Below, piece after piece: positions 1-9,038 of a DNA stretch of 64,000 nucleotides (position 1 is its first letter; the number at the start of each line of letters is the position of its first letter). Location of the stretch: contig CAVXEB010000004.1 in the NCBI GenBank assembly GCA_963760735.1, positions 1,592,329-1,656,328 on the forward strand. Direction: 5' to 3'. The notes under the pieces were generated by a model, which worked only from the letters and a program-made list of their open reading frames with translations, was not told where the DNA came from and searched no databases. A program made the translations under genes and the position numbers. The DNA is from an uncultured Chloroflexia bacterium. GTDB lineage: Bacteria; Chloroflexota; Limnocylindria; Limnocylindrales; CSP1-4.

Positions 1-143
1 GCCGCTCCGCCTGGCCGCAGGTCGATGGTCGCCGCGTTGCCGAACCAGGCGCCGAGGCCCTCGGCCGTGGTCAGCGCCGCCCACACCGTGGCCGGCGGAT
101 GGGCGATCTCGACGGTTCGCTCGATTCGATCGGGAAACCCCAT
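1..143 (-). CDS. SRPBCC / AHSA1-like (Activator of Hsp90 ATPase homolog) domain protein, N-terminal 47 aa only; gene runs off left edge
   Basis: The reverse-complement of 1-143 translates to MGFPDRIERTVEIAHPPATVWAALTTAEGLGAWFGN..., which matches the AHSA1/SRPBCC N-terminus. An AGGAGAG RBS lies 6 nt upstream of the ATG at 143. Confidence 0.5.
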   Translation of the reverse strand, partial: MGFPDRIERTVEIAHPPATVWAALTTAEGLGAWFGNAATIDLRPGGA

Positions 144-165
144 GACAACTCTCCTGGACTACGTG

Positions 166-210
166 GCAACCATTTGGTTGCTACTCAAGTTATAGCAACT
201 GATCGGTTGC
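166..210. promoter_or_regulatory. Two similar 16-bp inverted repeats (GCAACCATTTGGTTGC at 166-181; GCAACTGATCGGTTGC at 195-210) in the divergent corA / SRPBCC intergenic region; candidate operator pair
   Basis: Read directly from the sequence. The arms GCAAC(C)/(G)GTTGC are repeated with a 29-bp centre-to-centre spacing, in a locally AT-richer stretch. Confidence 0.3.
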
Positions 211-374
211 GTCAAGTGCGGCGCCGTGAGGATCACCGCCGCGGAACTCCGTGTGCCACAGTTGCCCGACACCGATGGTTCGGTCTCGCCTTGCTGGCGG
301 ACGGGCTCGTCGGTCCGGCCCGCAGCGGGGATAGACAGGCCCACGGATCGCGTGACCTTGGGAGGGAAGGTGAC

Positions 375-1526
375 ATGACGGAGCGCCGATCGCGCTTCCA
401 GCTCCCGACGCGACGCCCACGCCACCCCGCCCATCCGACGCACGAGCCGGCCCCCGAAGTGTCGATGGAGGCCCGCCCCGAGGATGTCGCGGCGCCGGTC
501 GAGCAGAGCCTCGTCGACACCGCCATCTACCGCGACGGGCACCGAGTCGACACGCCGGCGACCGTCGCGGAGACCGCGCGGCGTCTGCGGGCCCAACCCG
601 GGACGATGGGCTGGATCGGGCTGTTCCGGCCGGCCGAGGCGCAGCTGCTCCCGGTCGCCGAGGAGTTCGGGCTGCACGAGCTTGCCGTCGAGGACGCGAT
701 CGTCGCCCACCAGCGGCCCAAGCTCGAACGGTACGGCGACACGCTGTTCGTCGTGCTCCGGGCGGCCACCTATCTCGACGACGTCGAGGAGGTCGAGTTC
801 GGCGAGATCCACGTCTTCGTCGGGCCGAACTTCGTCCTGACCGTCCGGCACAGCCGGACGCCGGACCTCGGCGCCGTCCGCCATCGGATGGAGGACGACC
901 CGGAGCTCCTCGCCCGTGGCCCCGAGGCCGTCCTGTACGCGATCCTCGACAGCGTCGTCGACGGCTACGCGCCGGTCGTCGCCGGGCTCCAGAAGGACAT
1001 CGACGAGATCGAGGGCCAGGTGTTCCAGCGGCGACCCGAAGGTGTCACGACGGATCTACGAGCTGTCGCAGGAGGTGATCGAGTTCCAGCGGGCGACGCG
1101 GTCCGCTCCAGCGCCATGCTGGACGCGCTCGCCGCGGGCTTCGACAAGTACGGCACGGACGAGGAGCTGCAGCGCTACCTGCGTGACGTCGGCGACCATG
1201 CGACGACGGTCACCGAGCGGGTCGCCGCCTTCCGCCAGTCGCTCAGCGACATCCTGACCGTCAATGCGACCCTCGTGAACCAGGCCCAGAACGAGGAGAT
1301 CAAGCGGCTGACCGAGGCCAGCTTCGATCAGAACGAGGAGGTCAAGCGGGTCTCGGCATGGGCAGCGATCCTGTTCGCACCGACGCTCGTCGGGACGGTC
1401 TACGGCATGAACTTCGCCAACATGCCCGAGCTCGACTGGCAGTACGGCTACCTGTACGCGCTGGGCCTGATGCTGCTGACGAGCGTCACGCTGTGGTTGA
1501 TCTTCAGGGCCCGCGGCTGGCTGTGA
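375..1526 (+). CDS. corA: CorA-family Mg2+/Co2+ transporter
   Basis: The C-terminus has the YGMNF (GMN) signature and two TM helices. The ATG at 375 has a GGGAGGGAAGG RBS. The ORF track's 99 start adds an implausible 92-aa N-terminal extension. Confidence 0.8.
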   Translation: MTERRSRFQLPTRRPRHPAHPTHEPAPEVSMEARPEDVAAPVEQSLVDTAIYRDGHRVDTPATVAETARRLRAQPGTMGWIGLFRPAEAQLLPVAEEFGLHELAVEDAIVAHQRPKLERYGDTLFVVLRAATYLDDVEEVEFGEIHVFVGPNFVLTVRHSRTPDLGAVRHRMEDDPELLARGPEAVLYAILDSVVDGYAPVVAGLQKDIDEIEGQVFQRRPEGVTTDLRAVAGGDRVPAGDAVRSSAMLDALAAGFDKYGTDEELQRYLRDVGDHATTVTERVAAFRQSLSDILTVNATLVNQAQNEEIKRLTEASFDQNEEVKRVSAWAAILFAPTLVGTVYGMNFANMPELDWQYGYLYALGLMLLTSVTLWLIFRARGWL

Positions 1527-1550: not shown

Positions 1551-2339
1551 CTACGGCAAGCTGCCCACCGTGGACGGATCCCCATCGACCTCCGGGCCGC
1601 GATTGGCAAGGTGCATCCGTCGTTCGGCGGCCACTGCCGCGGTCCTGACGTCCCCGTCCGTTGGGCTGGCCCAGCCGAGCGACAGCCGAATCGAGAGACC
1701 CACCGACTCGAGCCAGTCGTCGGTGACAGCCCGCACGCGCTTCACGTAGCCGGCAGCTTTCTCCTCATCCGTCTCGAGGAGCAGGACCCCGTATCGCGCA
1801 CCGGGGAACCACGCGATCCAGTCGGCCTTGCGACCCTGTGCCACGAGCAGACGGGCCGTCTCGCGGGCCACCCGGTCGGCCATGTCGGGGCCGAGCGCCG
1901 CGCCCAGGTCGTCGAGGTGCGGGAGCTCGGCCATGACCACGGTCACGGGCCGCCCGAAACGGGCGAGGCGTGCCGACTCCTCACGGATCGCCCGGGACCA
2001 CGTCGCAGGATCGGCGAGTCCGGCGCGCCAGTCCGGTGGGGTCGAGTCCTGCCGGCGCCCGGGCGTGATGACGTCGCCGGCGCCGGGCGCGACGACCCCT
2101 TCCTCCTCGTCGCTCACGCTCGACGCCGCCGCAGCGTGAGGAACGGGACCGGGCGAGTCGGGCAATACACCGGCGACGAAGGCCTCGACGTCGGCGGCGG
2201 CGATGGGCACATCTTCAGTGGCGGCCACCGGCCTCGATCGGCTCCGGCGACGAGCCCGGAGCGCGGCCCAGATCGCGACTCCAACGTCCACGACGATGAG
2301 GCCGGCCAGGATCGCGAGGAGGACCTGGTCCTGCGTCAC
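1551..2339 (-). CDS. Membrane-anchored protein with a degenerate (inactive) GGDEF-like domain
   Basis: It has an N-terminal TM helix (LLAILAGLIVVDVGVAIWAAL) and an acidic linker. The domain (RFGRPVTVVMAELPHLDDL ... ARYGVLLLETDEEKAAGYVKRVR ... LSLGWASPTDGD ... AERRMHLAN) follows the GGDEF fold pattern but lacks the GGDEF/GGEEF motif. The GTG start at 2339 lies 4 nt after the parA stop, so the 2450 start would overlap parA by about 107 nt. Confidence 0.5.
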   Translation of the reverse strand: MTQDQVLLAILAGLIVVDVGVAIWAALRARRRSRSRPVAATEDVPIAAADVEAFVAGVLPDSPGPVPHAAAASSVSDEEEGVVAPGAGDVITPGRRQDSTPPDWRAGLADPATWSRAIREESARLARFGRPVTVVMAELPHLDDLGAALGPDMADRVARETARLLVAQGRKADWIAWFPGARYGVLLLETDEEKAAGYVKRVRAVTDDWLESVGLSIRLSLGWASPTDGDVRTAAVAAERRMHLANRGPEVDGDPSTVGSLP

Positions 2340-2343
2340 CAGG

Positions 2344-3183
2344 TCAGCCCGCTCGATGGATCGCCGCGGCCACGTTCGTTGAACGCGCGAACAACCGGCG
2401 CCAGCGTGACTGCGGGCGCCGGACGGGCTCCGAGAGATCCGCGCGCGCAATCAGCTCGTCGGCGAGCATCCGATAGTCGAGGGACGCACCGCTCTCGGGG
2501 GCATAGGCCGTGATCGGAAGACGGGCGGCTTCGGCCTCGGCGAGACGGATGCTCTCCCGGATGGTCGTTCGGGCCACGCGCCACCCGTAGATGCGTTCCA
2601 GCTCGTTGACGACCCCTCTCGCATGGAGTGTCCGGTTCATTCGACAGGCCAAAATCAGCGGACTCCGGAGGCCCGGATTGAAGGTGGACTGGATGCGCCC
2701 CATCTCGCGGACGACAGCCGCGACGCCGGGCAACGCGATCGCATGAGCCTCGACCGGGATGACCACCTCCTGGACGGCCATCAGGGCACCGACGGAGAGA
2801 TACGAGAGGGACGGCGGGCAATCGACGATCACGTACGCCCAGTCCGGGCTCAATCGTCGAACGGCTCGCACGACCCGCAGGCTGACCTCGCCCTTCTGGG
2901 TCTGCTCGGCCTCGAGCAGCCCGGCCGAGGAGCGCACGATCGCCAGCCCCGGGACGGCCGTCCGCTGGGCGTTGGCCACACCGTCGGGTGACGCGATGAG
3001 ATCGCGATGGTCACGGGCACCGGCGAGCCAGACGGACGCACTGCCCTGCGGATCGAGATCGATGAGCAGCGTCGGGAAGCCCCGCTCAGCGAGAATCGCG
3101 GCCAGACTGACCGCGGTCGTGGTCTTGCCGCTTCCCCCCTTGCGATTGACCACGGCGATGGTCCGCACGGTGATGCCCCACAC
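2344..3183 (-). CDS. ParA/Soj/MinD-family P-loop ATPase; no parB partner in the window
   Basis: Deviant Walker A motif [18 protein letters not shown] near the N-terminus, 279 aa, typical ParA architecture. Confidence 0.85.
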
Positions 3184-3600
3184 GATCGTGGCGGCGGGAG
3201 CAAATGGCAGTCCCGGCCACCGGGGCCGCAGGGTACATCAGCCGTCGGCGGGTACGGAAGTCCCAGCCGGACGATGGGAACGATGTCCGGTGCAGGCGGT
3301 CGACGCGCATCACGCGCGCTCGACTGAACCATCCGCCGTTCGAGCGTCGGATTGGGCGAGTCACCCGGTCCGCCGCGCGACAGGGCGGTCTACGGAATCT
3401 TGGTGATGACCGACGCCTCGGTCGACCCCGAGGCTGGCATGTCGCCCCTGCATGGCGAACCAAGGGTCCAAATCCGACAACGAACTCGGTTCGACACGAC
3501 CCAACCATCATGCTGTCGGCGGCGTCTGGACTCCCGACAGAAGCGATCGACGGCGACACCGCGACGAGCGGGCGCCAGGATCGACGGCCAGAGGGACGAC

Positions 3601-4194
3601 GTGGATGCGGTGACGACGGCGACGAACGCAGCGACGTCGGTCGACGACGCGCTCGTTCGGCGCGCTCGCTCCGGCGACGCCGCCGCGTTCGAGGTGCTGG
3701 TCGATACGCGGATCGATCGCTGCTACCGGCTTGCCTGGTCGATCCTGTCCAACGACGCGGACGCGGCCGATGCGACGCAGGACGCGCTCGTCGCGGCCTG
3801 GCGCCAGCTTCCGCGCCTCCGCGATTCGGCGTCCTTCGATGGCTGGCTCAACCGGATCGTTGCGAACACCGCCGTGTCGGCGCGCCGGCATCGGGTGCGG
3901 CTCCGCGAGGTGTCGGTCCGACCGGCCGACCCGAGCGCGGAGAGCTCTCCTCCTGAGTCTCCGCAGAACCTCCATGGCCGAACGCAGATGGACGAGATGG
4001 TCGACAACGACGCGATCGGACGTGCCTTCGACCGCCTGCGGCCGAAGGACCGGATGATTCTCGTCCTCCACCACGTCGAGGAGCGGCCCGTGGCCGAGAT
4101 CGCGCGGTCGCTCGGCATCCCGCTCGGAACGGCCAAATGGCGCCTGCATGCCGCTCGCAACGCGCTCGAGAAGGCGATGGAGGCCGAGGCATGA
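3601..4194 (+). CDS. ECF (sigma-70 family, group 4) RNA polymerase sigma factor
   Basis: Region 2 (ALVRRARSGDAAAFEVL ... DATQDALVAAWRQLPRL) and region 4 HTH (ILVLHHVEERPVAEIARSLGIPLGTAKWRLHAARN) are present. The GTG 3601 start is chosen to give a normal approximately 197-aa ECF. In-frame ATG 3439 and ATG 3352 are alternatives. Confidence 0.75.
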   Translation: MDAVTTATNAATSVDDALVRRARSGDAAAFEVLVDTRIDRCYRLAWSILSNDADAADATQDALVAAWRQLPRLRDSASFDGWLNRIVANTAVSARRHRVRLREVSVRPADPSAESSPPESPQNLHGRTQMDEMVDNDAIGRAFDRLRPKDRMILVLHHVEERPVAEIARSLGIPLGTAKWRLHAARNALEKAMEAEA

Positions 4195-5339
4195 ACGCTC
4201 CGCGCTTGACCGACGCCCAGATCGCCCAGGCACTGCGTGTCCATGTTCCGGAGCGCGCAGGGGCCGGCTTGCGCGAACGGACGCTCCGGGCAGCCGGGGC
4301 CACCGCCCAGCAGCGGGCGCTGCCCTCGTTCCTCGGCGCTCTCAGCGAAGCGGACCCGGTCGTGCGGCGGCGAGGCCTCCTCATCGCCGCGGCCCTCCTG
4401 GTTGCGGTGGCATTCGCGGGTGCCGCGGCGGTCGGGGCGTTGCGCCTCCTCCAGCCGGACCCCATCCGCGACCTGAGCGTCCTCACGCCTGAGCACGTCG
4501 AGGACCTCGGCCTCGAGCCGCCGACGGACGTCCAGGCGTTCGTCCTGTCCAGCTACGATCGGATGCCGAAGCTGCCGCCGGTCGCCATGACGTGGCGAGC
4601 CCATGGCTCGGCCAAGGGCCGCATCTATGTCGATCGCTCGGGGGCGGTTCGCTTCGAGCGGTTCGCGTCGGCCGATGCGACGGAGCCCGACACGTACCGG
4701 ATCCTCCGCGGCGACAGCATTGGATCGCTGGAGACCGTCGGGTCCGAGAAGGTCTGGGTCGCGCGGCACGAGGCCATCGGCGAGGACCCGCGGGTGTTCA
4801 TCCTCGCCGAGATCGAAACCGCCCCGATCCATTTCGACGGGCCGGGCTGCGATCTGACTCGGAACGCGGACGAAGCGGGCAACGGGACCGCGGCGACGGG
4901 TTGGCGGTACGTCGGCGTCGAGTCCGTCGCGGGCCGCGCCGCCCACCGCGTCACGTGCGGCGGCGGCGACCTCTGGCTCGATAGCGAGACCCGGCTGATC
5001 CTTCGCGCCCGGACGCCGCTCCTCGACGACGCCGACCAGCCGATCCCGGGTGAGTTCCAGACATTCGAGATCACCGAGATCGCGTTCGGCGAGCAGCCGG
5101 CGGCGCTCTTCGACCTGGCAGCACCCGCAGGCGTCACCGCGGTTCCGATCGAGGACCTGGAGGCGTACCGATGTGCGCGCGATCCGCTCTGTGCTGCCCT
5201 GCCGCCCAGCGAGCGTCCCCATCCCGATACCGGTGTACCGGGGAACGACCCGCCGCCTGAGTCCAGCCCAGATCCGGGCGCGCCAACCGAACAGTCGGAT
5301 TTCGGTGCTCCGGGCAACGGCCCATCGGCAAACCCATGA
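4191..5339 (+). CDS. Putative anti-sigma factor: single-pass membrane protein with an extracytoplasmic beta-rich domain and a Pro-rich tail
   Basis: ATGA overlap with the sigma stop. The N-terminal cytoplasmic segment is followed by one TM helix (LLIAAALLVAVAFAGAAAV) and an extracytoplasmic domain. The gene position is typical of ECF cognate anti-sigmas. Confidence 0.55.
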   Translation: MNAPRLTDAQIAQALRVHVPERAGAGLRERTLRAAGATAQQRALPSFLGALSEADPVVRRRGLLIAAALLVAVAFAGAAAVGALRLLQPDPIRDLSVLTPEHVEDLGLEPPTDVQAFVLSSYDRMPKLPPVAMTWRAHGSAKGRIYVDRSGAVRFERFASADATEPDTYRILRGDSIGSLETVGSEKVWVARHEAIGEDPRVFILAEIETAPIHFDGPGCDLTRNADEAGNGTAATGWRYVGVESVAGRAAHRVTCGGGDLWLDSETRLILRARTPLLDDADQPIPGEFQTFEITEIAFGEQPAALFDLAAPAGVTAVPIEDLEAYRCARDPLCAALPPSERPHPDTGVPGNDPPPESSPDPGAPTEQSDFGAPGNGPSANP

Positions 5340-6661
5340 TCGCCGCAACCAGAGGTGGGGACATGAACCGCCCGTTCAGACGATCTGCGTCGCCGATGGC
5401 AGCGGTGGTCGCGGTCGCTGCGATCCTGACAACCGCCTGCACTGGCGGGGCGGGCGTGGCCAGCGCGACCCCCGCAGCGACGCCTGGACCTACGGCTTCG
5501 CCGGCCCCGAGCGTGACCGCGCCTTCGGCCGCTCCGTCAACCAGCCCGAGCCCGGCGGCGACCCCGCTGATCTGGACCAAGGCGAGCCTGAAGGAGGATT
5601 GGCCGGCCCCGGTCCGCACCGAGCCCACCGGCCCCGCAACCATCGTGCCGATCAGCGACAGGTACCAGGATCCCACGAGCGACACCGAGTCCGGTGCGTT
5701 CCCTTGGACCGACATCCACGTGATCGGGTTCGGGCACAACAACGCCGTCGTGGTCTACGTCCCCGGGGCGCCCAACGTGGATCCGACCGAGCAGTGGATC
5801 GCCTACGGGGTCGTCGTGGATGACGACGGCGACGGCGTCGCGGACCGTCGATTCGGGATGGACAACATCCCAGGGCCCGCGGCGGAATTGCCACACCGGG
5901 CGTGGATCACCGACCTCCACACCGGTCGGACGGAGTCGTCGGTCCTGAACTCGCTTGACTACTTCGAGTCCCCGCAGGGGATCGTCAAGACGCCGATGGT
6001 CGGCGACACCTTCTTCGGCGCCTCCTTTCCGGCCAGGCAGACGGAGACCGACAAGGGCCCGTCCTGCTCACCGGCCCGTCACGCGGGCCCAAGCCATCCT
6101 TACGGCAACCCGCCGCCCTGGATGCGTGGGTTGGCCCCGGGAGAGCTCGAGTTCGGCGGGGGCGGAGACGTTGCCGGGAGCGCCGTTCAGAAGCAGAAGC
6201 CCGACACCAGGCCTGCCCGCTTCTACGCATGGGCATCGGTGATCGTCGATGGCCGGGTCATGGCCACCGATTTCGCCCCGGATGCGGGATGGCTGCATCC
6301 TTCGCCGAAGGCTCAACCGATCGAGGACGAGGTCGCCGTCGCTCCGCCAATCGACTCGCTCGACGAAGCCGTTGCCGCCGTTGGAGTGGTCGAGCCAGGC
6401 TTGACCGGCTTCCTGGCGACCGACACCAAGGTCCCCGGCGTGTCGGCCTGGATCGAGGCCGAGGCACGGGGCGGGGGCTGGGACATCACCTACGTGTGTG
6501 GTGACTCTCCGGACGGCGGCGCCAGCCACGTGGCAGCCGAGATCCACGTCCGCCGGAACGGGACCGTCGACGAGATCTGCGTCTGGCATGATCCGAGCGG
6601 GAACGACTACGCAGCTCCGGGGTACAGCCCGCCTGAAACCGAGGAGGCCGGCGCCTGTTGA
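5336..6661 (+). CDS. Secreted lipoprotein, function unknown
   Basis: ATGA overlap with the upstream gene. The signal peptide has a lipobox (AAILTTAC) and the mature protein is Asp/Gly-rich. The internal ATG at 5363 (MNRPF) is an alternative start. Confidence 0.5.
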   Translation: MIAATRGGDMNRPFRRSASPMAAVVAVAAILTTACTGGAGVASATPAATPGPTASPAPSVTAPSAAPSTSPSPAATPLIWTKASLKEDWPAPVRTEPTGPATIVPISDRYQDPTSDTESGAFPWTDIHVIGFGHNNAVVVYVPGAPNVDPTEQWIAYGVVVDDDGDGVADRRFGMDNIPGPAAELPHRAWITDLHTGRTESSVLNSLDYFESPQGIVKTPMVGDTFFGASFPARQTETDKGPSCSPARHAGPSHPYGNPPPWMRGLAPGELEFGGGGDVAGSAVQKQKPDTRPARFYAWASVIVDGRVMATDFAPDAGWLHPSPKAQPIEDEVAVAPPIDSLDEAVAAVGVVEPGLTGFLATDTKVPGVSAWIEAEARGGGWDITYVCGDSPDGGASHVAAEIHVRRNGTVDEICVWHDPSGNDYAAPGYSPPETEEAGAC

Positions 6662-8385: not shown

Positions 8386-8793
8386 TCACGGGAGGATCCG
8401 GAAACGTCCGCCACTGAGCGGTCGCAGGACGTCGAAGTGCCGGCGATCGAGGGTCACGATGGTTCGCGTTCGGTAACGCTCGGCCAGGATCACGTTCGAA
8501 GCGTCCGCGACGCCGACGTTCTGGTCTGCATACCGCTCGATGACGGCGCAAGCCTGAACGAGCCCCTCGACATCGATCGCGGGTAGGTCCCATGCACCGC
8601 CGGTCAGCTCCCGCAGAACCGCCATCTCGGCCGAGACGCCGAGCCGAGACGCCACGAGGTAGTCGAGTTCGGCGACCACGTAGGGCGAAACCACGAGGGG
8701 CTCCGTCGCCCCGCCGAGAATGGCGGAAACCGTGTCGTGATCGGGCTCGTCGGTGTCGAAGAATGCGAGCAGCGCGCCGGTGTCGACGATCAC
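8386..8793 (-). CDS. vapC: PIN-domain ribonuclease toxin VapC
   Basis: MIVDTGALLAFFDTDEPDHD ... VVSPYVVAELDYL ... TIVTLDRRHF, with conserved acidic PIN residues; 4-nt overlap with the upstream antitoxin. Confidence 0.85.
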   Translation of the reverse strand: MIVDTGALLAFFDTDEPDHDTVSAILGGATEPLVVSPYVVAELDYLVASRLGVSAEMAVLRELTGGAWDLPAIDVEGLVQACAVIERYADQNVGVADASNVILAERYRTRTIVTLDRRHFDVLRPLSGGRFRILP

Positions 8794-9038
8794 CGCTCGC
8801 CGAACCCGCGCAGATGTTCGTCGGCCTCGCGCGCGATCGGAGCGCGGCTGGCGAACAGGCCACCGCGCGGGCGCGGTCGATCATTGCCGACCGCTTCGCG
8901 GATCGAGTCGCGAATGACCTCGGCCTCGGACACTCCCCGCTGCCGGGCAACGCGCTTGATCGCCGACTTGAGCTCCGTCGGCAAATAGATGGTCGTCTTG
9001 TCCACGCACGTATGGTACCACCGCTGGCGCTGGGCCAA
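8790..9038 (-). CDS. vapB: Ribbon-helix-helix (CopG-like) antitoxin VapB
   Basis: 82 aa. TIYLPTELKSAIKRVARQRGVSEAEVIRDSIRE forms an RHH. The gene overlaps vapC by 4 nt. Confidence 0.75.
   Translation of the reverse strand: MAQRQRWYHTCVDKTTIYLPTELKSAIKRVARQRGVSEAEVIRDSIREAVGNDRPRPRGGLFASRAPIAREADEHLRGFGER

Follow-up and report, generated by a model that had tools for sequence, protein, structure and literature searches.

Chromosomes, plasmids, organelles and division sites are organised by ATPases of the ParA family, whose specificity is set by a partner protein, and c-di-GMP (cyclic dimeric guanosine monophosphate) is the chief messenger by which bacteria set their lifestyle. To our knowledge, the only documented direct link of this messenger to the ParA ATPase superfamily through a GGDEF-type receptor is the BcsE-BcsQ pair of the enterobacterial machinery for cellulose secretion. 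Here we describe a conserved operon of about 1.6 kb, carried by uncultured soil and freshwater Chloroflexota of the class Limnocylindria, which codes for a Soj-type ParA-like ATPase and for a protein that spans the membrane once and bears a degenerate GGDEF domain, an arrangement suggesting that the place of action of the ATPase is set by a second messenger. It was analysed in a stretch of 64,000 nucleotides (64 kb; positions 1,592,329 to 1,656,328 of contig CAVXEB010000004.1, assembly GCA_963760735.1), referred to as the window, and coordinates are positions in this window unless a locus name (L followed by a number) precedes them. An initial annotation, made from the letters alone, had not recognised the pairing as a described system. 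This stands for the stand-alone module, of which no description was found in the searched literature on ParA-type ATPases with GGDEF domains or c-di-GMP and on Limnocylindria, but a functional precedent has been published (PMC7439463).

In this precedent, from E. coli, BcsE binds c-di-GMP at the RxxD motif of the inhibitory site (I-site) of a severely degenerated GGDEF domain and also binds directly to BcsQ, an ATPase of the MinD/ParA superfamily (PMC7439463). The complex is tethered to the membrane by the single-pass protein BcsF, the binding of BcsE to BcsQ is independent of c-di-GMP, and the C-terminal tail of BcsQ has been examined as a possible membrane-targeting sequence (PMC7439463). 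The Limnocylindria operon shares with this system a degenerate GGDEF domain with an RxxD motif, an ATPase of the ParA/MinD superfamily, a single-pass transmembrane element and a C-terminal tail on the ATPase, and by this likeness BcsE-BcsQ is its nearest functional precedent, analogous and not homologous. The differences are also clear. The ATPase is of the Soj type, the partner is a 262-residue protein (transmembrane helix, linker and degenerate GGDEF domain) instead of a soluble protein with degenerate REC, GGDEF and EAL domains (GIL) and a separate BcsF anchor, its GGDEF domain keeps the full canonical fold, and neither BcsR nor cellulose synthase genes are present at the loci.

Other receptors have also lost the active site (A-site) of the GGDEF domain. 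PopA from Caulobacter retains the I-site RxxD as ligand pocket; it differs from the protein described here in containing two receiver domains and recruiting proteolysis adaptors. In the membrane-anchored PelD the A-site is likewise lost and the I-site RxxD is the ligand pocket (PMC7439463). PelD, from Pseudomonas, differs from the protein described here by its four transmembrane helices and its GAF domain, and it activates Pel synthesis. We know of no case in which PopA or PelD is encoded with, or acts on, a ParA-type ATPase.

On the ATPase side, PpfA-TlpT, McdA-McdB, ParC-ParP, PomZ-PomXY and MipZ resemble this operon in having a ParA-fold ATPase without ParB or parS beside its partner; in the partners of such orphan ParAs, a short peptide without fixed structure is expected to touch the dimeric ATPase. 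None of the orphan-ParA adaptors known to us has a c-di-GMP sensor domain or is an integral membrane protein of this type. In the FleN/FlhG-FleQ system of Pseudomonas the action of a MinD/ParA-family ATPase is reportedly tied to a c-di-GMP-binding partner, although FleQ binds the messenger in an AAA+ domain and is a soluble transcription factor, whereas the partner here is a membrane protein with a GGDEF domain. The chromosomal Soj/ParA-Spo0J/ParB-parS systems share with the ATPase described here the fold, all the ATPase motifs, the DNA-binding arginine and the closest solved structures; they differ in that here there is no linked ParB or parS, the ATPase has an extra C-terminal tail, and the partner is a receptor-like membrane protein.

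The features of the operon are the following (ATPase residues are numbered on the 274-residue protein; pLDDT, predicted local distance difference test, is the confidence of the AlphaFold2 (AF2) models):

2344-3168, minus strand: gene of the Soj-type ParA-like ATPase (274 amino acids, start GTG 3168, stop 2344-2346, Pfam AAA_31)
3118-3141, minus strand: KGGSGKTT, a Walker A motif of the deviant type that includes the signature lysine (K10, K15), invariant in 42 orthologues
2347-2442, minus strand: C-terminal extension of the ATPase past the Soj core (residues 243-274), conserved in orthologues
2383-2409, minus strand: basic/aromatic motif SRWRRLF-R of this extension (residues 254-262), conserved in orthologues
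1551-2339, minus strand: gene of the 262-residue partner, which crosses the membrane once and has a degenerate GGDEF domain (from the list of open reading frames, the family alignment and GGDEF matches)
2241-2333, minus strand: N-terminal transmembrane helix of this protein, residues 3-33 (AF2 helix with pLDDT ~90; conserved hydrophobic segment)
2169-2201, minus strand: linker motif AAADVEAFVAG, residues 47-57 (family form AA(I/V)EAF(V/I); pLDDT <50)
1599-2030, minus strand: degenerate GGDEF-fold domain, residues 104-247 (AF2 pLDDT 93-97)
1821-1832, minus strand: I-site RxxD, R170-K-A-D173 (R170 and D173 invariant in 32 of 32 sequences)
1791-1805, minus strand: degenerate active site, PGARY in place of GG[DE]EF (profile alignment to GGEEF cyclases and column view of 60 loci)
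1737-1739, minus strand: R201, third residue of the primary I-site (invariant; aligned with the Arg of 'ERIR' in 3ign)
3211-3306, minus strand: conserved non-coding block, GTCGAC-N4-CTGCACCGGACA ... CCGTACC ... GATGTACCCTGCGG (nucleotide conservation in 17 loci)

Both genes lie on the minus strand and form one operon with translational coupling: between the stop codon of the ParA-like gene (TGA, 2346-2344) and the start codon of the partner gene (GTG 2339) stand the four letters CCTG. The ParA gene is directly followed by the GGDEF-like gene in 18 of the 18 loci examined (entries in which L001 and L005 are the same contig entered twice), with a spacing that goes from a 4-nt overlap (GTGA) to a 5-nt gap, exactly 4 nt being the commonest. 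The 4-nt coupling pointed out in the initial annotation is therefore of a junction type present in every locus checked, and the two genes are conserved neighbours in the relatives, a recurrence which argues that the pairing is not due to chance. The loci were reached by three independent routes: the partner protein led to four metagenome contigs and to GTDB species representatives, the ParA protein to four contigs and the DNA block upstream of ParA to three contigs. This last search scanned metagenomes with a loose pattern, and L097, L162 and L208, the genuine loci among the 120 listed, all carry the gene pair. In L087 the partner had been missed by the gene caller and was recovered by tblastn and from the junction sequence. 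The flanking genes vary between loci and no third gene recurs. Nearly all the contigs with the pair are assigned to Limnocylindria, and the few assignments to other phyla are probably mis-binned short contigs of metagenome-assembled genomes (MAGs). Two associations were observed in a single locus each: the pair lies about 2 kb from ftsZ in one genome (L002:8897-10291) and, in another, a gene for a class III nucleotide cyclase stands immediately upstream of it (L003:4104-4940).

The limits of both genes had to be adjusted. The longest open reading frame (ORF) of the ParA gene (2344-3183, also starting with GTG) codes for 279 amino acids, but when 17 orthologous loci are aligned at their 5' ends, conservation sets in at the second GTG (3168), which stands opposite the ATG of L012 and has a GGGG run resembling a Shine-Dalgarno sequence in front of it. 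GTG 3168 is therefore likely the true start, and the length of most ParA orthologues in the database (278 amino acids) is consistent with it. A 299-residue ORF that begins with TTG at 2450 is an over-extension of the partner gene into the ParA gene.

The partner protein has three parts, as seen in an alignment of 32 sequences and in the AF2 model: a transmembrane helix, then a disordered linker, then a domain with the GGDEF fold. The helix contains a conserved Asn/Asp in its middle and is followed by an arginine-rich juxtamembrane stretch (RRRRRS) that, by the positive-inside rule, points to an N-out, C-in topology and so to a cytoplasmic GGDEF domain. The linker (residues 34-100) is modelled as disordered (pLDDT <55) and is unconserved apart from one short motif. 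The GGDEF assignment is above the thresholds of the sequence models (Pfam GGDEF, 27.3 bits versus a cut-off of 23.8; TIGR00254, 42.2 bits versus 37.4) and is borne out by the structure: a Foldseek search of the Protein Data Bank (PDB) matched the modelled domain to the GGDEF domains of GcbC, DosC, PleD, WspR and a T. maritima protein (E ~1e-10, target-normalised TM-score 0.74-0.81, root-mean-square deviation 2-3 A), and an hmmsearch of the PDB with the profile of the partner family retrieved the same GGDEF structures (6e-16). The claim of a GGDEF fold, which would have fallen if the domain did not model as one, is borne out by these matches, and that of a single transmembrane helix by the AF2 model. 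Neither degenerate REC and EAL domains nor a DNA-binding domain were found in the partner.

The loss of the GG(D/E)EF active site, also reported in the initial annotation, is confirmed by the profile alignment, since the corresponding position reads GDARF in the family and PGARY in the window protein. Against c-di-GMP-bound cyclase domains, the family stretch 'RaaDriawLgdarFgvLLlET' is set opposite 'RqsDsagrYGGEEFgiiLpET', while Glu takes the place of the first metal-binding Asp of the DxD strand, and Ala that of the Asn that contacts the base. With these three changes the protein is predicted to be unable to act as a diguanylate cyclase and should not be filed as one. The I-site, which had been singled out for checking, is in the opposite state: the RxxD motif precedes the place of the lost GGDEF motif by six residues, the canonical spacing, and R170 and D173 fall on the RxxD of 3ign and 5euh, two structures with bound c-di-GMP. 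The third arginine, R201, falls on position 390 of PleD (residues 161-240 of the profile against 318-397 of 2wb4_A, stretches of equal length that were taken as ungapped); R359, D362 and R390 of PleD are what we take to be its primary I-site. R127, at the position of the secondary-site arginine of cyclases, is also invariant. A decayed A-site next to an intact I-site is the signature of receptors of the PopA, PelD and BcsE type, and since the full I-site pocket (R170, D173, R201) is kept, the domain is expected to bind c-di-GMP. Canonical cyclases predicted to be able to make this ligand are found in the lineage, for example a GAF-GGDEF protein with GGEEF and RxxD in L088.

This domain belongs to a wider family. 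A genome scan revealed about 60 Limnocylindria loci with paralogues of the partner (32-49% identity) and no neighbouring ParA, and a column view of 60 loci showed that these unlinked proteins also lack GG[DE]EF and keep RxxD, which suggests that Limnocylindria have undergone a lineage-specific expansion of a receptor-type family of GGDEF proteins. An exhaustive hidden Markov model search gave 202 clusters at 50% identity (E<=1e-30) among 91,547 GGDEF matches. The paralogues are found beside molybdenum-cofactor oxidoreductase, amidohydrolase and Tad/VWA genes, contexts that give no functional clue; many of them (L010-L071; for example L042:4542-5465, L014:4026-5483 and L024:5001-5780) lie between molybdopterin oxidoreductase and amidohydrolase genes, and some are 380-500 amino acids long, with an extra N-terminal region.

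Within this family, the 17 ParA-linked domains form a single clade (196 of 200 bootstraps in a neighbour-joining tree of 86 domains), and they are distinguished by the short motif in the linker, which is present in all 18 ParA-linked entries and in none of 66 unlinked proteins. E52 and F54 of the motif are invariant in the 32-sequence alignment; the regular expression AA(I/V)EAF(V/I) matches 16 of the 18 entries, the other two (L001 and L005) reading ADVEAFV like the window protein. Because it is a short peptide in a disordered linker that appears only beside ParA, this motif is the best candidate for a ParA-contacting or ATPase-modulating element. In ParB, MinE, McdB and PomX such a role falls to an N-terminal peptide, to which the linker motif may be analogous.

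The ParA-like protein matches in Pfam AAA_31 (7e-32), CbiA (1e-18) and MipZ (2e-9), with weaker matches to ParA and BcsQ, and none of the NCBIfam equivalogs reaches its cut-off, the minD models staying far under theirs. With the single sequence, the best solved relative is T. thermophilus Soj (7e-34, aligned residues 5-248). A family profile built from 42 ParA orthologues and searched against solved structures gave T. thermophilus Soj again as the closest (E 1e-44), followed by the ParA 8ray (2e-42), H. pylori Soj (4e-38) and the mycobacterial ParA-like protein 4pfs (2e-36); McdA (7e-15), ParF (1e-13), MinD (6e-12 for the archaeal and 4e-6 for the E. coli protein), FleN (1e-6, a distant relative) and MipZ (1e-5) were much further away, and BcsQ was not among the 60 best solved relatives. 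The initial annotation had proposed to place this ATPase among the MipZ, PpfA, PldP and MinD clades; by these comparisons it is assigned to the Soj/ParA clade instead, and it is far closer to chromosomal Soj than to the McdA and MipZ of the orphan systems. The description as a canonical small Soj/ParA without an adjacent parB or centromere was correct, as none of the genes next to the pair, here or at the related loci, codes for a ParB-domain protein, and neither a parS-like site (with <=3 mismatches allowed) nor iteron-like repeats were found in the window; the genome may still hold a separate ParABS system elsewhere. There is also no minC or minE adjacent to the gene and no second GGDEF or ParA gene elsewhere in the window.

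All the elements of the catalytic core are retained. The KGGSGKTT motif is aligned with KGGVGKTT of Soj, DLDPQ (Walker A') and VIVDCPPS (Walker B) with the corresponding motifs of T. thermophilus Soj, and the orthologues show no variation in the signature lysine, the catalytic lysine, the DLDPQ switch or Walker B; the protein should consequently be an active, dimerising ATPase (the AF2 model has a predicted template modelling score of 0.82). The Arg of 'MNRTLH' (R179) lies opposite the Arg of 'dgRTLL' in Soj and is near-invariant in the orthologues. This 'RTL' arginine presumably corresponds to R189 of B. subtilis Soj ('DARTNL'), required for non-specific DNA binding, so that the predicted DNA-binding arginine is retained.

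The main departure from Soj is at the C-terminus, where every ParA orthologue has a tail of about 30 residues; Soj lacks it, and the Soj alignment stops near residue 248. Residues 255-271 are modelled as a detached helix with low confidence, and on a helical wheel W, L, F, V, A and I share one face with the arginines opposite, resembling the membrane-targeting sequence of MinD. The tail may serve in membrane binding, partner binding or additional DNA binding.

The anatomy, the fold, the state of the motifs, the gene linkage and the clade specificity are observed, and on them a mechanism can be proposed in which a membrane-anchored c-di-GMP receptor is the partner of a Soj-like ATPase and the ligand shifts the location of the ATPase. 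ParA would form an ATP sandwich dimer. The membrane protein, anchored by its one transmembrane helix, would replace ParB as the dedicated partner of ParA and would present the linker motif to the cytoplasm, where it would contact ParA or modulate its ATPase activity. The GGDEF domain would bind c-di-GMP, possibly as an intercalated dimer that cross-links two receptor domains, and its occupancy would alter the recruitment or the stimulation of ParA dimers by the membrane protein, so that ParA would be redistributed among nucleoid-bound, membrane-bound and free states. In this way the level of the second messenger would be coupled to the spatial organisation of the cell, through nucleoid-membrane tethering, the division site or a function of the chromosome. 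We infer the binding of c-di-GMP, the direct contact with ParA and the cellular output, and give the dedicated module as a whole an even chance of being correct. The more ambitious claim, that this would be the first Soj-type ParA in which ParB has been exchanged for a membrane c-di-GMP receptor, the messenger gating its presence on nucleoid or membrane, appears rather doubtful.

Several points count against such a ligand-controlled module. The expected binding of c-di-GMP comes down to three residues; the hydrophobic moment of the ParA tail is not significant, being no higher than that of shuffled sequences; and no cargo or output gene is linked at the examined loci, which makes the cellular process a guess. 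Moreover, as BcsE binds BcsQ independently of c-di-GMP, control of the ATPase by the ligand would not be guaranteed even with both kinds of binding in place, and the organisms are uncultured, with the function deduced from their genomes.

The precedent can also be read in favour of a scaffold that needs no nucleotide, one of the two main rivals, in which the GGDEF domain would merely anchor or activate ParA at the membrane and the RxxD motif and the third arginine would be kept for structure or contacts. Degenerate GGDEF domains that serve purely as interaction modules exist, and many further columns of the domain are invariant as well; all three I-site residues are nevertheless invariant at canonical spacing while the active site has decayed, and the same I-site-only pattern in paralogues from unrelated contexts fits a shared ligand better than a shared partner, for which reasons this scaffold is considered unlikely. 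The other main rival reverses the roles: nucleoid-bound ParA would distribute clusters of the GGDEF-like membrane protein, which would be the cargo, a c-di-GMP sink or sensor hub, as PpfA positions TlpT arrays and McdA positions carboxysomes. Orphan ParAs are typically encoded beside a cargo adaptor, the ATPase is of the Soj type with its predicted DNA-binding arginine retained, and the disordered linker carries a short motif like other ParA-activating peptides. Against such positioning, the 262-residue protein has no output domain that would make it useful, an integral membrane cargo is less free to follow a nucleoid gradient than a cytoplasmic body, and, judging by its conserved tail, it is rather the ATPase that would move to the membrane or the partner; cargo positioning is, in our view, quite unlikely.

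The likeness to BcsQ and BcsE raises the question of an accessory to envelope or exopolysaccharide secretion, either in a role like theirs or as a split bacterial tyrosine kinase (BY-kinase), that is, a transmembrane activator with a cytoplasmic P-loop kinase such as CapA/CapB. Apart from the BcsE precedent, what speaks for it are distant similarities: BcsQ matches in Pfam (1.8e-6) and TIGR03371 (57.6 bits), a match to the eps_fam tyrosine kinases (3.5e-7) and CapA/CapB chains (~3e-6). The same scores turn against it when set beside the cut-offs (157.85 bits for TIGR03371; 30 bits against 108 for eps_fam, TIGR01007) and beside Soj (1e-44), which is far ahead; the tail of ParA contains no tyrosine, and so lacks the C-terminal tyrosine cluster, and glycosyltransferase, cellulose synthase or Wzx/Wzy genes flank none of the loci, leaving a secretion role very unlikely. 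Most improbable of all is a partition cassette of a plasmid or an integrated element with the membrane protein as ParB substitute. The genomic contexts of the pair do differ between MAGs, and the best NCBIfam match is the plasmid-type ParA_partition (3e-29), but with 101.8 bits it stays below the 180-bit cut-off; there are no integrase, replication or conjugation genes nearby, no parS or centromere-like repeat and no difference in GC content between the pair and its flanks across the window, and the partner is membrane-embedded and without a DNA-binding domain, on contigs of chromosomal size (0.3-2 Mb). The dedicated c-di-GMP-responsive module remains the preferred reading of the operon.

Some 95 nt of non-coding DNA upstream of the ParA gene form a block whose nucleotides are conserved across 17 loci (the window, L001-L004, L006-L009, L012, L013, L085-L088, L097 and L162), although the ParA proteins of these loci share no more than 60-85% identity. 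Its invariant stretches are GCACCGGA and G-TGTA, CCGTACC is kept in most loci, and the motifs across loci can be written as GTsGAC-N4-CTGCACCGGACA, CCGTACC and GrTGTACCCTGCGGGCCCGG. The block gave no Rfam match at E<=1 and no match to the sigma-70 consensus; its TACCCT fits what we take to be the TAnnnT-type -10 element known from Actinobacteria. A riboswitch or other RNA leader was considered and rejected: besides the lack of Rfam matches, RNAalifold gave -3.5 kcal/mol without real covariation, and the candidate pairings vary on one side only. For these reasons the block is treated as a DNA-level element, most likely a promoter with operator sites for some regulator. In some loci an insertion of 40-60 nt separates the block from the ParA start (L003 ~5050-5110, with equivalents in L004, L007, L009 and L162); it holds a GGTTCGAGGTTCGAATCC-like sequence that resembles the T-arm of a tRNA, and the insertion may be what is left of a tRNA or else a small mobile repeat. 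ARAGORN calls no tRNA in the insertion or upstream of the ParA gene.

The operon is flanked in the window by a convergent CorA gene and a divergent operon headed by a sigma factor of the extracytoplasmic function (ECF) type. The ORF of the CorA Mg2+ transporter (99-1526, plus strand) runs towards the GGDEF-like gene, and the two stops are only 24 nt apart; the longest reading of the CorA ORF adds an arginine-rich N-terminal extension of about 120 amino acids, and since the orthologue in L001 was called at 352 amino acids, the true start is probably internal. On the other side (3352-6661, plus strand), behind the ECF sigma factor (3352-4194) come two ORFs that overlap and have no Pfam match, 4137-5339 (with a weak anti-sigma-like match) and 5336-6661. 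This synteny is kept in the closest relative, L001, and not in the other loci, so that the ECF-sigma operon is probably outside the module. Further away (8386-9038, minus strand), two small overlapping ORFs of 82 and 135 amino acids have a layout resembling a toxin-antitoxin system, with a short gene placed upstream of a candidate toxin of the PIN-like kind. A search for anti-phage defence systems with PADLOC gave no match of any weight.

The module is real, conserved and compact, and it is confined to an uncultured lineage. Limnocylindria, abundant in soil and freshwater, are shown by this analysis to have expanded their GGDEF proteins of the receptor type, which form about 200 clusters when grouped at 50% identity. 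If the more ambitious of the claims above is true, the operon would encode a c-di-GMP-controlled nucleoid-membrane tether, or a switch of division or chromosome organisation, in a major uncultured soil lineage, and the AA(I/V)EAF(V/I) peptide would represent a new kind of ParA-activating motif. With its small size, the operon would also offer a minimal, heterologously expressible system for the steering of a ParA-type machine by a second messenger.

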